Shown piece by piece: positions 11,864-20,176 of a stretch of 21,972 nt of DNA. Each line of letters opens with the position of its first letter. Position 1 is the stretch's first letter. A program made the translations under genes and the position numbers. The stretch spans positions 1 through 21,972 of the forward strand of contig CAXXTX010000013.1 in NCBI GenBank assembly GCA_963666425.2, in the 5' to 3' direction. Below the pieces are notes generated by a model. The model was not told the origin of the DNA. It saw only the letters and a program-made list of their open reading frames with translations, and made no database searches. The DNA is from Bacillota bacterium. GTDB lineage: Bacteria; Bacillota; JAAYKD01.

Positions 11864-12568
11864 ATGATGGGAAATAAGTATGCTGTTCTAAAACAGTTGA
11901 TTGACCTTTATGAAAGTTTTGAACTGGAGAATAATCAATTAGATGTTCTGAATTTTGCCGAGTGGATTGTAAGTAAATCTCACGAAGAACCTGAACTTCA
12001 GGAGAAAATAGCAGATAAAAAAATATCAGCTCGTAATCCGGGAGCTTCAGTCCCTTTTAAAAATCATTTTGATGATAAAATCCGGTTTCTGGAAGCTGCT
12101 GCCGGAATTGCCCGGTATCATGAATCTTACATACGGAAAGCGCTGAAAGATATGGTAATCAATTCTCGTTTGGAATTTCTATTCCTACAGGCAGTTGATA
12201 TGTTGGAAAGAGCAAAGAAAACCGATCTGATCAATATTTATCATCTGGAATATACGACTGGTATGGATACAATCAGGCGTTTGATTAATAACGGTTTACT
12301 ATTCGAGATACAGGATGAAACAGACAAAAGAATTAAACTGCTTATAATGTCTGATCAGGGAAGAGTTGTTTATGAGCAAGCCCAAAAGCGAATAAGTGAT
12401 GAAAGCACTATGTTCTTTACTGCAATAAGTGATAATAAATGGAAGAAAGTTTTGCCAGTTTTGGAAGAAATTGATGATTTCCATAACGAAGTTTTCCAAA
12501 AGCATAACGCAAAACCTTTTGCCGAATTGTCTAATTTAATGGATTCGCTCAAGCATTTGTATAAATAA
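11864..12568 (+). CDS. MarR-family winged-helix regulator with an N-terminal extension
   Basis: EFLFL...KKTDLI...EYTTGMDTIRRLINNGLL...DETDKRIKLLIMSDQGR (MarR wing DKR). The likely start is ATG 11864 or 11867. Confidence 0.85.
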   Translation: MMGNKYAVLKQLIDLYESFELENNQLDVLNFAEWIVSKSHEEPELQEKIADKKISARNPGASVPFKNHFDDKIRFLEAAAGIARYHESYIRKALKDMVINSRLEFLFLQAVDMLERAKKTDLINIYHLEYTTGMDTIRRLINNGLLFEIQDETDKRIKLLIMSDQGRVVYEQAQKRISDESTMFFTAISDNKWKKVLPVLEEIDDFHNEVFQKHNAKPFAELSNLMDSLKHLYK

Positions 12569-12637
12569 AACCTTAAAATGGGAATCACATTTCGAAATAT
12601 CAGCAGGCCGAACAATCCGAAACCCGGTTAATTGTTA

Positions 12638-12653
12638 TTCCGTTTTTCACGTA
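12638..12653 (-). promoter_or_regulatory. Copy 1 of a 16-bp motif (TACGTGAAAAACGGAA) upstream of the NfnA-like gene
   Basis: 14/16 identical to 18678-18693. Confidence 0.5.
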
Positions 12654-12737
12654 CATGATTCACTTAATTCTGCCAACGGTTTTTTTTCTGTGTTTGATTC
12701 AATCTATCTTGAAAAACTTTTTAAAATCCGAAATAAA

Positions 12738-13565
12738 ATGAATTTAATCATAGCTAAGAAAATCATATCAGCCAATGTGGCGAATCTTGAAATTAGGACT
12801 TCGACCGTTTTAAGCGACATCAGGCCGGGTCGATATATTTCGATTATCATAGAAAAAGATAAACCTGGCATTCCCGCAGCAGTTCTGAAATTCAATCAGG
12901 AAAATGGCACAATTACAGTATTAGTTTTTGTTGCAGATAAATACACCCAACAATTAGCTGAATTGAATTTCGGAAGCGAAATTTTCAGGATCAATGGCCC
13001 TTTTGGTTATCCCATGCTAATTGAAAATTTTGGTACGGTTTTATGTGTTAGCGACGGACCCGGTGCAGTTATGCTTTTACCTGCTTTAGCTTCACTTCGA
13101 TCGGCAGGAAATCGAATCATTACCATTCTTACGGCTCGAACTTTGGATGACATCTTGCTCGAAAACGAGCTTCGGGCTATCTCGGACGAAGTAATTGTAA
13201 TTACCGAAAGCGAAGATAGTGGAAGAAAAGTCGCTGTTTGTAAGATAATTACACAAATCCTTAGAGGCAACAAAGTCGATCATGCATTAGTAATCGGTTC
13301 GGCTACCACGATCAAGAATACATGTGTACATGCCCGCAAATACAACATTCCGATCCAGGCAATTCTATATTTGAACAAAACTGTGCAAAGCACAGGTCAT
13401 GGTATTTATAAGGTAAGTGTTTCTAGCACAGACAATGCAGTTTGTGTGGATGGGTTCGACTTTAACGCATGGTATCCAAATCTGGAAGAAATGGTCAAAA
13501 GGTTTGGATGCGAGGAGGATATTCCTTGCAATACAACTGGCAACAACGTAAAAATTCTCGTTTAA
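12738..13565 (+). CDS. Degenerate NfnA/SudB/PyrK-like (ferredoxin-NAD(P) reductase fold) protein
   Basis: Collinear with the family (IRPGRYI, GTITVLV, GPFGYP..IENFGTVLCV, AGNRIITIL.AR, CVDG.DF), but the cofactor motifs are altered. Confidence 0.8.
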   Translation: MNLIIAKKIISANVANLEIRTSTVLSDIRPGRYISIIIEKDKPGIPAAVLKFNQENGTITVLVFVADKYTQQLAELNFGSEIFRINGPFGYPMLIENFGTVLCVSDGPGAVMLLPALASLRSAGNRIITILTARTLDDILLENELRAISDEVIVITESEDSGRKVAVCKIITQILRGNKVDHALVIGSATTIKNTCVHARKYNIPIQAILYLNKTVQSTGHGIYKVSVSSTDNAVCVDGFDFNAWYPNLEEMVKRFGCEEDIPCNTTGNNVKILV

Positions 13566-13726
13566 ACAGCATAGTGAATTTACCTTAAAAGGCGCTGGAT
13601 CGGTCAAATTGAAATTTTGGCTGTTTTCGCGCCTTTTGTAATAAATTAAATCAATTATGTGTTAATTTCGAAAAGCTTCTGAACTTTAACCCAAAAGTTC
13701 AGTAAATTCAGATTTAATCGGAAAAT

Positions 13727-17944: not shown

Positions 17945-18590
17945 CATTGCCATCTTTGATGAACATAGACTGGTACTGGAAGGTGTTTCTGGTCTCTTAT
18001 CCGGAATTACCGACTTTCGGGTTGTTCTTTCCTGCGATAACCGCGAGGTGCTGGTCGAAAAATTGAAATCAATACAAATTCATGTATTGATACTGAATAT
18101 GCACGACATTTCGGTCCGAAACCTAAACCTCATAGTACAATTAAATATCAGCAGCCCGAAATTAAAAATCCTGATTGTCTCGGTTATTGATAATGAAGAA
18201 ATTGTGCTGAAGACCATCAAAGCCGGAGCCAAAGGTTTTCTCGGAAAAGACTCGGATCGGAATAGTTTGATGGAAGCAATTTACACACTGCGTAACGGAC
18301 ATGATTATTACAGCAAATCAATTACACATTTGCTGCTGAACCGCTATATTTCTGGTCTTAAAGCAGACGAACTGAGCCAAAGCGCCGACCTTGCCAATTT
18401 AAGCTCGCGCCAAGTCGAGATCCTCAAACTTTGGGGCGAAAGCCAAACCAACCAGGAAATTGCCGACCGCTTTTTTATCAGTGTTCGTACGGTTGAATCG
18501 CATAAGAACCACATCATGCAAAAACTCAACTTAAAAAGTACCGTTGATTTGGTGAAGTTTGCGATTAAAAACAATATAATAGAAATATGA
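17937..18590 (+). CDS. NarL/LuxR-family response regulator with an atypical receiver (Asn at the acceptor position)
   Basis: REC domain plus LuxR HTH (LSSRQVEILKL...NQEIADRFFISVRTVESHKNHIMQKL). Strand beta-3 ends VLILN54. The gene overlaps the upstream gene by 8 nt. Confidence 0.92.
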   Translation: MIDIAIFDEHRLVLEGVSGLLSGITDFRVVLSCDNREVLVEKLKSIQIHVLILNMHDISVRNLNLIVQLNISSPKLKILIVSVIDNEEIVLKTIKAGAKGFLGKDSDRNSLMEAIYTLRNGHDYYSKSITHLLLNRYISGLKADELSQSADLANLSSRQVEILKLWGESQTNQEIADRFFISVRTVESHKNHIMQKLNLKSTVDLVKFAIKNNIIEI

Positions 18591-18677
18591 CCGGCAACTG
18601 AAATATATCGATTGCCAGAAATTTGCTTCAATTGATTTCCCCGTTGTGATTCAATCGGTACTTCGCATTTTCTCCCC

Positions 18678-18693
18678 TACGTAAAACACGGAA
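18678..18693 (+). promoter_or_regulatory. Copy 2 of the 16-bp motif (TACGTAAAACACGGAA) upstream of gdhA
   Basis: Imperfect palindrome TACGT-N5-ACGGA, ~130 nt before the ATG. Confidence 0.5.
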
Positions 18694-18820
18694 TTCAACC
18701 AGAACTTATCGCAGTTAAGTTTATGGATATTATTTTTAGGCATTGAAGGCTTTGGATGCTAATCGTGCCACCTTCAAAATTCTGGTACAAATCAAAAAAA
18801 TCATATCTAGAAAATTTATT

Positions 18821-20176
18821 ATGGCAGACATTTTAAACGTAAGAGTTAACGAGTTTATGGCAAAAGTAATTGCCAAAAACCCTGGAGAATCAGAATTCCA
18901 TCAGGCAGTAAAAGAAGTGGTCGAATCATTGATGCCTTTCATCGATGAAAACCCAAAATACAATCATGCAAAAATTCTGGAACGCATGGTAGAACCTGAA
19001 CGGGTAATGATGTTCCGCGTTCCTTGGGTAGATGACAATGGCGAAATTCAGGTAAACAGAGGTTTCCGCATCCCAAATGAACAGTGCGATTGGCCCATAT
19101 AAAGGCGGTCTGCGCTTTCATCCAACTGTAAATCTTGGTATCTTGAAATTTTTAGCGTTCGAGCAGGTATTTAAAAATAGCCTGACAACACTTCCAATGG
19201 GCGGTGGAAAAGGTGGATCTGATTTCGATCCGAAAGGAAAATCGGATAACGAAGTCATGCGTTTTTGCCAAAGTTTCATGACCGAACTTCAACGCTTTAT
19301 TGGCGCTGATACCGATGTTCCTGCCGGTGATATTGGTGTTGGTGGTCGCGAAATCGGCTTTTTGTATGGACAATATAAACGCATCAGGAACGAATTTACC
19401 GGCGTATTGACTGGTAAAGCGATTGAATGGGGTGGAAGCTTGATCCGTCCGGAAGCAACCGGTTATGGCGCAGTTTATTTTGCCGACCAAATGTTGAAAA
19501 CCCGCGGACAGGACTTGAATGGTAAAATTGCAACAGTTTCGGGTTCTGGAAACGTGTCCGCAATATGCCGTTGAAAAAACTGATTCATATGGGTTCAAAA
19601 GTGGTTACCATGTCCGATTCATTAGGATTTGTGTATGATCCTGCCGGGTTTGATGAAGAAAAGCTGGCTTTTGTCTTGGAATTGAAAAATATCCGCCGTG
19701 GACGTATCAAGGAATATGCTGACAAATACAATGTGCAGTATTTCGAAGGTCAGACTCCATGGAATATTAAGTGCGATGTAGCTTTCCCTTGTGCAACACA
19801 GAACGAAATTAACGAAGACGATGCCAATATGCTGATAAAGAATGGCTGTTATGTTGTTTCGGAAGGCGCTAACATGCCATCGACTCCTGAAGCTGTTGAA
19901 GTATATCTTAAAGCAAAGATCCTTTATGGACCGGGCAAAGCAGCCAATGCAGGTGGTGTATCCACATCTGGGCTTGAAATGTCGCAAAACTCGATGCGTT
20001 TACCTTGGTCGCGCGAAGAAGTCGACGCACGTTTGCACCAGATCATGATCAACATTCACGAAACCTGTGTAAAATACGGAACCGAGAAAGATGGGTTTAT
20101 CAACTACGTAAAAGGAGCCAATATTGGCGGATTCATCAAAGTTGCTGATGCCATGATGGTTCAGGGAGTTGTATAA
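18821..20176 (+). CDS. gdhA: NAD(P)-specific glutamate dehydrogenase; three apparent +1 insertions (~19072, ~19560, ~19579)
   Basis: [77 protein letters not shown] and KAANAGGV. Confidence 0.95.

Follow-up and report, generated by a model that had tools for sequence, protein, structure and literature searches.

How is glutamate dehydrogenase (GDH) governed when its gene, gdhA, stands behind a very long gene whose product joins sensor-like repeats, receiver-like domains and a dikinase-type ATP-grasp, with no histidine kinase encoded beside it? This question is raised by a stretch of DNA deposited under Bacillota bacterium (assembly GCA_963666425.2, 18 contigs; contig CAXXTX010000013.1, here C14). 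The analysed window is the entire contig, 21,972 bases long. Between 11.8 and 20.2 kb it carries five genes on the + strand, encoding a MarR-type protein, an NfnA/PyrK-like protein, a protein of 1405 amino acids (aa) that we call BIG, a NarL-type regulator and GDH. The initial annotation, made from the sequence alone, had placed these five co-oriented genes correctly (its MarR start, 11864, is an internal ATG within the open reading frame (ORF) 11834-12568) and had proposed that they form a signalling module acting on gdhA. Our analysis leads to a narrower reading, to which we give a probability of about 0.6: a conserved regulatory unit dedicated to GDH.

BIG, a NarL-type regulator and gdhA form a conserved unit

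The features that carry this reading are the following.

13727..17944, + strand: BIG, a 1405-aa multidomain sensor/dikinase-like protein, in an open frame
17937..18590, + strand: NarL/FixJ-type regulator with an Asp-less receiver (Asn54) and a GerE helix-turn-helix
18677..18693, + strand: candidate operator in front of gdhA, CTACGTAAAACACGGAA, with 2 mismatches against the consensus given below
18822..20176, + strand: gdhA, NADP-type glutamate dehydrogenase, in three frames with three 1-base insertions near 19072, 19558 and 19574

BIG has many relatives: 7036 of 8000 scored candidates matched it at E<=0.001, the nearest being labelled Prolixibacteraceae, and 14 homologues share 60-87% identity with it. 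Gene order was compared in the best 80 loci of 393 relatives, one genome per species, and a locus was counted where its flank left room (at least 750 nt for the regulator and at least 2600 nt for gdhA). A regulator gene followed BIG within 400 nt in all 69 loci with room, and gdhA lay downstream of BIG in 57 of 58. When distances were taken from the ends of high-scoring segment pairs (HSPs), the end of BIG and the start of the regulator were at most 75 nt apart in 59 of 65 loci; gdhA started within 1.5 kb of the regulator in 58 of 65, extra genes intervening in the other seven (L009, L014, L017, L023, L025, L042 and L053). In L014 (12238-16177), a gene for a PAS-HisKA-HATPase_c kinase, cut in two by a DDE transposase, lies between the regulator and gdhA. 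The initial annotation had left room for a gene order peculiar to this one genome, which is not what the relatives display: BIG, the regulator and gdhA are a conserved core unit.

The regulator lacks the acceptor aspartate

The regulator is recognised by the GerE (E 3.9e-18) and Response_reg (E 1.9e-11) families and aligns over its full length with NarL (1a04_A, E 1.5e-21), Asn54 standing opposite Asp59 of NarL. In the window protein and 68 orthologues the acceptor position is filled by Asn (58 sequences), Thr (4), Gly (3), Ser (3) or Lys (1) and never by Asp (0/69), in agreement with the annotated pseudo-receiver. The conserved receiver Lys is also relaxed in these 69 sequences (Lys in 49, Arg in 10, other residues in 10). 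In the window, the regulator gene overlaps the BIG gene by 8 nt. The protein resembles VpsT- and CsgD-like regulators, both found among its matches, in combining a receiver fold that has lost its acceptor Asp with a GerE domain; unlike them, it carries Asn (or T/S/G/K) at the acceptor position and its gene always lies immediately behind a sensor-dikinase gene.

A palindrome marks the upstream region of gdhA

By k-mer counting, AAACACGTAA occurred in 37 of the 58 spacers between regulator and gdhA, the maximum in shuffles being 4. The corresponding 17-bp inverted repeat has the consensus TTACGT[GA]AAACACGTAA and mostly lies ~95-140 nt before the gdhA start codon. Besides the site upstream of gdhA, the window holds a second one:

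12638..12654, - strand: operator-like palindrome between the MarR and NfnA-like genes, GTACGTGAAAAACGGAA, 3 mismatches

These are two matches at up to 3 mismatches where 0.11 are expected, a number reached by 1 of 100 shuffles. A similar palindrome is found in L032, upstream of that locus's own NfnA-like gene.

The distribution of the palindrome follows gdhA closely. The loci, 1.09 Mb in total, contain 62 sites at up to 2 mismatches, and 56 of them sit just upstream of gdhA; the other six lie before a gdhA cut by a contig end (2), upstream of BIG (2), upstream of an NfnA-like gene (1) and elsewhere (1). Counted by locus, 56 of the 65 that bear gdhA have the palindrome upstream of it. Where extra genes displace gdhA from the regulator, the palindrome stays with gdhA in six loci (L009, L014, L017, L023, L025, L042), L053 being without a site. 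Palindromes built from shuffled half-sites (n=30) gave 0-3 sites each, whereas the real variants, of which there are two, gave 58 and 52. In 34 distant loci without the regulator, no palindrome was found at up to 2 mismatches. The simplest interpretation of these sequences would be that a dimeric GerE-type protein binds the palindrome, which makes the site a plausible operator and lends weight to the proposal that the regulator acts on gdhA. Promoter motifs added little: a sigma-70 scan of the window was uninformative (24 found, 23.4 expected), and the Bacteroidota -7 motif TAnnTTTG occurred in just 17 of the 58 intergenic regions.

Sensor and receiver-like parts of BIG

The ATP-grasp of BIG is preceded by an OrfY-like domain and, before that, by ~735 residues made up of GAF-like and receiver-like domains:

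14132..14902, + strand: two clear GAF-like repeats, aa 136-262 and 263-392, with 50% mutual identity
15044..15451, + strand: receiver-like domain 1, Asp-less, ~aa 440-575, Met505 at the acceptor position
15479..15931, + strand: receiver-like domain 2, ~aa 585-735, with E594 D595, D665, S699 and K718
15935..16201, + strand: OrfY/DUF5752-like domain

Residues 1-135 resemble a third, diverged GAF-like copy, and other loci have between 1 and 4 copies. The extra repeats that the initial annotation described as sensors are indeed present, but their GAF label comes from weak matches: Pfam GAF matched just 1 of 22 repeat copies (E 0.0024), a profile of the repeat weakly matched Nlh2 in the PDB (4g3v_A, E 0.0091), and an Atlas GAF cluster (0.90) appeared at rank 17.

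Receiver-like domain 1 gave a weak Pfam Response_reg match (aa 481-538, E 1.6e-4). Its alignment with PorX (8p6f/8ted) sets 'FDIVFLD' of PorX opposite 'FDLVILM' of BIG, with Met505 at the acceptor Asp, and this Met was invariant across sets of 14 and 20 aligned homologues. In receiver-like domain 2, E594/D595, D665, S699 and K718 were invariant or nearly so in the same two sets, down to 36% identity. For this second domain, 19 of 30 Atlas matches fell in clusters in which 48% of the members bear Response_reg; RcsB was matched sub-threshold only, over alpha3-beta4 (E 1.2), and hhalign of the domain against the receiver of the NarL-type regulator returned nothing.

A dikinase-type ATP-grasp followed by a swivel-type domain

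The remainder of BIG consists of two domains:

16208..17386, + strand: PPDK/PEP-synthase-type ATP-grasp, ~aa 828-1224 (PPDK_N at aa 851-1218, E 3.1e-36)
17432..17941, + strand: C-terminal swivelling beta/beta/alpha-type domain, ~aa 1236-1405, with GPGRWG[ST] and G-[ST]-His1337

All motif residues of the ATP-grasp were invariant in the aligned homologues and the domain is intact. The C-terminal domain (C-domain) has the conserved motif GPGRWG[ST]...G[IV]P[VL]...E...G[ST]HFF, and 25 of the 26 relatives compared keep G-[ST]-H with His1337. Modelled with AlphaFold2 (pLDDT 88.4, pTM 0.84), residues 735-1405 had their best structural matches in RPH, phosphoenolpyruvate (PEP) synthase and PPDK, with HpeI also among the closest solved relatives; alignments of the entire module with PEP synthase (chain 4-467) and PPDK (chain 6-511) cover both the ATP-grasp and the phosphohistidine (P-His) domain. 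In the model His1337 stands at the start of a helix, and the catalytic His of dikinases likewise begins a helix. Aligned by hhalign with six genuine P-His domains, the module shared only 17 columns (E 0.14), and the C-domain alone gave zero Foldseek matches at E<=0.001. Because sequence profiles give no link between the C-domain and PF00391, its homology to the phosphohistidine swivel domain can be called plausible and no firmer.

BIG resembles the PEP-utilising dikinases (PEP synthase, PPDK, RPH) in having an intact PPDK_N ATP-grasp followed by a putative swivel-fold domain with G-[ST]-His at a helix start. It differs from them in several respects. A GPGRWG[ST] loop precedes the His where dikinases have GGxTSH...ARE, the C-domain escapes detection by PF00391 and by profile comparison, and GAF-like, receiver-like and OrfY-like domains come before the ATP-grasp. 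Moreover, Pfam found neither a PEP-utilizers_C TIM barrel nor a rifampin-binding domain in BIG, and the chain ends after the C-domain. Since the PEP/pyruvate barrel is absent, BIG is not a PEP synthase; ordinary PEP synthase activity, which the initial annotation had named as an outcome contrary to its proposal, is very unlikely from the domain scan.

BIG could instead be a metabolic dikinase or ligase that acts on a small molecule of the GDH pathway, in the manner of RPH, PigC or HpeI, with its sensors tuning that activity. Its nearest solved relatives, RPH, PEP synthase, PPDK and HpeI, would fit such an enzyme, as would weak NCBIfam matches to PigC and RedH. However, only OrfY-like and swivel domains flank the ATP-grasp and no substrate domain is recognisable, and ~735 sensor and receiver residues together with a dedicated transcription factor are better suited to signalling. 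We therefore consider this function highly improbable.

Does the unit need a histidine kinase?

No HisKA or HATPase_c domain was found by the Pfam scan of the window ORFs, and none of the 25 HATPase_c matches of a six-frame search of the whole assembly lies on C14, so that the window does lack a histidine kinase, as annotated. The label 'histidine-kinase-free' is another matter and stays unproven, as E594/D595, D665, S699 and K718 are kept in receiver-like domain 2. Because this domain retains the full acceptor set, an unlinked histidine kinase is taken as its default input.

The assembly itself offers little guidance on such a kinase. The GC content of C14 is 0.393, compared with 0.472 for the 2.9-Mb main contig and 0.22 to 0.63 for other small contigs. 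The tetranucleotide correlation of C14 with the rest is 0.746, where 22-kb chunks have their 5th percentile at 0.71 and their 25th at 0.92. No relative of BIG was found in nine genomes from the same genus, family or order, and the closest relatives (<=94% identity) carry the labels Prolixibacteraceae or Bacteroidales metagenome-assembled genomes. C14 is thus probably mis-binned or recently acquired, for which reason the kinase repertoire of the host is unreadable from this assembly. The bin is mixed in other places too: contigs C3, C7, C10, C12, C13, C5 and C15 have GC contents of 0.56-0.63 or 0.22-0.29 and tetranucleotide correlations with the main contig of 0.16-0.51.

A more radical possibility is a phosphorelay that dispenses with a kinase altogether. 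The ATP-grasp would load His1337, the swivel domain would pass the phosphoryl group in cis to Asp665, and the phosphorylated receiver pair would switch the Asp-less regulator, the dikinase fold replacing a histidine kinase. A full acceptor set and a P-His-like domain are indeed united in one polypeptide and conserved to 36% identity, and the window has no kinase; a histidine-kinase gene, interrupted by an insertion sequence, was found in one of the 12 loci scanned with Pfam (L014), the other loci having been compared with the window proteins only. Two censuses also record the fusion of receivers with a PPDK-type domain (REC-PPDK), to which their accessible portions assign no function (PMC4395418, PMC5847659). 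On the other hand, receivers placed N-terminal to enzyme domains are usually inputs from unlinked kinases, a receiver Asp is not known to be phosphorylated from the His of a swivel domain, and the full kinase set of the organism cannot be listed from a contig that is perhaps mis-binned. The module also appears to work without a receiver, since relatives that have GAF-like or other N-termini and no receivers adjoin GDH genes (L127, L128, L129 and L131). It thus seems doubtful that the ATP-grasp and swivel-His module stands in for a histidine kinase and delivers its phosphoryl group to Asp665, the regulator or GDH.

The module accompanies GDH genes beyond this lineage

At E<=0.001 the 671-residue module formed by the C-terminal part of BIG matched 3272 cluster representatives, of which 758 remained at E<=1e-30; at the stricter threshold it was present in 37 of 301 genomes of the phylum. 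The usual module protein has ~1000 aa, in the order REC-REC-module, with ~320 N-terminal residues before the module. Of 39 other places, 34 distant loci were examined for GDH-family neighbours. The REC-REC-module forms had gdhA directly downstream, with no regulator, in 2 of 3 loci, and forms of 860-1080 aa had a GDH-family gene within ~2.5 kb in 12 of 18, one more lying directly after gltB-gltD; short forms without an N-terminal extension had no GDH-family neighbour (0/13). Frequent neighbours also include gltBD or nfnAB. The GDH-linked distant loci come from at least seven families, in which related genomes are non-independent samples. In L127 (5751-11899) and L128 (5401-10301), relatives of ~1070 aa unite a GAF-like repeat with PPDK_N and end in an NTP_transf_2 domain. 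They follow a gene for a 428-aa ELFV dehydrogenase, in L127 a 444-aa gdhA comes after, and two such forms with the nucleotidyltransferase domain are flanked by a GDH-family gene on either side. We read these data as indicating that the conserved partner of the module is GDH, to which the regulator and operator of the Prolixibacteraceae add a transcriptional arm.

The same observations could be taken to mean that the two proteins form independent layers: BIG would only modify or bind GDH, with which it is co-expressed, and the regulator would act alone on gdhA, for example when bound to a ligand. No transcription factor intervenes where distant relatives adjoin GDH genes (14 of 21 loci), and the nucleotidyltransferase domain of the L127 and L128 relatives is reminiscent of enzyme-modifying regulators. 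There are also known cases of LuxR-type regulators that lack the Asp and obey a ligand; VpsT, which responds to cyclic di-GMP, is among the PDB matches of the regulator (E 1.4e-09). Yet the regulator always follows BIG directly (69/69), with an overlap in the window, which exceeds what mere co-regulation would need, and we hold a complete separation of the two layers to be rather unlikely.

Frame breaks in the gdhA gene of the window

The initial annotation treated gdhA as a whole gene and overlooked its division among three ORFs (18743-19102, 19077-19574 and 19565-20176), and no single open frame of the window encodes a full-length ELFV dehydrogenase. The pieces match NADP-GDH models (PRK09414, E 2.5e-98; PRK14031, E 1.2e-101). 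Contigs from four other public runs, 98-99% alike, were aligned to the stretch. The base at 19072 is absent from the contigs of all four, that at 19558 from all three runs having depth there, and that at 19574 from two of three, the third run having a contig break at the same place. By blastp, two gdhA pieces shared 97.5% and 92% identity with an orthologue whose gene is intact, which makes a long-dead gene unlikely; the first piece returned no match. We conclude that the frame breaks are very probably assembly errors.

The region from 12.69 to 18.59 kb is clean, and the genes directly downstream of gdhA are frame-broken too. A short - strand fragment (20223-20420) extends over two frames and presumably corresponds to the N-terminus of a dihydroxy-acid dehydratase; within 20223-21486, a gene of the carboxymuconolactone-decarboxylase family is divided between two frames near 21064-21191. 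The contigs of the other runs differ from the window by one-base indels at 20306 and 20365.

A model for the control of gdhA

From the established anatomy of BIG, the synteny and the operator distribution, we infer a series of binding and phosphotransfer steps. A dimer of the regulator would bind the inverted repeat and set the transcription of gdhA, and it would probably also control its own operon through the weaker site upstream of the NfnA-like gene. Since the regulator is not phosphorylatable on Asp, it would take its signal from BIG, encoded directly before it. BIG would integrate a metabolite signal, perceived by the GAF-like repeats, with a phosphorylation signal arriving at Asp665 of receiver-like domain 2. 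Its ATP-grasp would then load His1337 of the swivel-type C-domain in dikinase fashion, and either the phosphoryl group or a conformational state would be handed on to a target protein, namely the regulator, GDH or both. That BIG acts directly on GDH is suggested by distant relatives that adjoin GDH genes without a transcription factor.

Several observations weigh against this model or narrow its reach. The loci come from related genomes, which are non-independent samples, and in L036 no gdhA lies downstream. No site at up to 2 mismatches was found in 9 of the 65 gdhA-bearing loci, and the operator candidate could belong to a different regulator that co-occurs in the same lineage. Receiver-like domain 2 was unrecognised by Pfam, PDB sequence search and hhalign. 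Coupling of the regulator to BIG by gene overlap, as initially annotated, is borne out in the window but is not general, the gaps between HSP ends ranging from -4 to +306 nt. In L121 (5618-7363), a REC-REC relative is followed by a PAS sigma-54 activator and an amino-acid permease rather than by gdhA. Lastly, the insertions in gdhA, together with the frame breaks of the next genes, could reflect real decay in this strain. As a separate observation on L121, a gene for an aldehyde dehydrogenase precedes the REC-REC-module relative.

Accessory genes upstream of BIG

Two further genes had been counted as members of the proposed unit:

11834..12568, + strand: MarR-type winged-helix regulator, 244 aa (HTH_27, E 3.2e-07)
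12690..13565, + strand: degenerate NfnA/PyrK-like protein, 291 aa, a pseudo-reductase

A MarR homologue occurs upstream of BIG in just 3 of 59 loci with room (L008, L053 and L087), and the NfnA-like gene adjoins BIG upstream in 20 of 59 with enough flank. The unit as first drawn therefore keeps BIG, the regulator (69/69) and gdhA (57/58), and these two genes become accessories; what stands of the proposed signalling module is the dikinase-fold sensor and the pseudo-receiver regulator, without MarR and NfnA in the core and without the claimed absence of a kinase.

The NfnA-like protein matched no Pfam family at E<=0.01, DHODB_Fe-S_bind included, and scored 158 bits against NCBIfam PRK06222, below the cut-off of 220. 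It is nevertheless alignable over its full length to NfnA of T. maritima (4ylf_A, E 6.7e-34, the best solved relative) and of P. furiosus (E 1.3e-29). Relative to 4ylf_A, RIPLTV has become GIPAAV, GGGVG has become SDGPG and DGTGMCGAC has become QSTGH-GIY; of the four cluster ligands, three have been lost and only the Cys of CVDG is kept. By their roles in the NfnAB structures, the replaced residues are the Arg that binds flavin, the Gly-rich loop for the nucleotide and ligands of the [2Fe-2S] cluster. Unlike NfnA/PyrK, the protein has thus lost the Arg motif, the Gly-rich loop and most of its cluster ligands, and no NfnB partner is encoded in the window.

The degenerate form lies directly upstream of BIG in ~19 other loci, in open frames and with 32-81% identity. 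Four loci (L060, L071, L074, L086) have a canonical NfnA instead, further upstream; in L060, L071 and L086 this canonical neighbour has DHODB_Fe-S_bind and is followed by NfnB. The ratio of nonsynonymous to synonymous substitution rates (dN/dS) of the NfnA-like gene was 0.13-0.23 in five pairs, the pair L011-L017 being excluded (pN 0.72, a frame or alignment error). As judged from its sequence, the NfnA-like protein is a maintained pseudo-enzyme under purifying selection, degenerate as initially described, and it may serve as an accessory subunit without cofactors that is confined to one sub-lineage.

The rest of the contig

Other features of the window are:

2-346: N6_Mtase fragment
473-1627, - strand: DUF4099/DUF3945/Toprim_Crpt protein
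7134-8474 and 8677-9483: IS21-type pair, rve/Mu-transposase C and IstB, respectively
10131-11824, - strand: three tandem genes with GreA/GreB C-terminal domains (Rnk-like), directly upstream of the MarR gene and divergent from it

The left part of the contig (1-9483) is mobile-element DNA. The IS21 pair has a GC content of 0.47-0.49, the flanking DNA 0.27-0.39. Between 2000 and 5000 (~3 kb), only short ORFs were seen, none of them matching a Pfam family. Neither an Rfam family nor a tRNA was found in this segment or anywhere else in the window.

Relation to known systems and significance

The fusion of receivers to a PPDK-type domain is already known. One census of two-component systems notes its enrichment for Asp-less receivers (PMC4395418), and another terms it 'Bacteroides-like' (PMC5847659); the census passages name neither a function nor a partner or target. 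BIG shares with these REC-PPDK regulators the fusion of one or more receivers to a PPDK-type domain; the form described here adds between 2 and 4 repeats of GAF-like type, an Asp-less transcription factor of its own and the conserved operator candidate at gdhA. Our literature search, with most subscription journals outside its scope, returned no reported function for the REC-PPDK fusion or for the unit, and the accessible part of a paper on nitrogen in Prevotella ruminicola contains nothing on a BIG-like gene (PMC5552732). A supposed BT1970-1972 layout in B. thetaiotaomicron was dropped from the comparison, BT1971 being a catalase (PMC12596196). In the literature that we found, a gdhA-dedicated unit with its regulator and operator candidate is undescribed.

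The control of glutamine synthetase by GlnE and GlnD offers a further parallel. The likeness, one of function only, would be that of a large sensor-enzyme encoded with an enzyme of nitrogen assimilation that it may covalently modify. Distant relatives of BIG have an NTP_transf_2 domain; BIG itself has no homology to GlnE/GlnD.

Nitrogen regulation in the Bacteroidota is poorly understood and is not known to follow an NtrBC scheme as in Proteobacteria. Older work, by Baggio and Morrison in 1996, reportedly made GDH activity in Bacteroides dependent on trans-acting genes near gdhA; if the kinase-free relay is real, its module could be the factor involved. Against this background, the present work describes a sensor family whose dikinase-type module is tied to GDH genes in at least seven families and, in one lineage, is joined by an Asp-less transcription factor of its own and by a defined candidate operator of 17 bp. 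The DNA site, the putative catalytic His, the putative acceptor Asp and the repeats that may bind a ligand provide handles through which the notion of a dikinase fold as a protein phosphodonor in signalling becomes testable. Were the kinase-free relay to prove true, it would be a phosphorelay of a new class, in which a dikinase fold takes the first step, and would govern ammonium assimilation across many families of the phylum.

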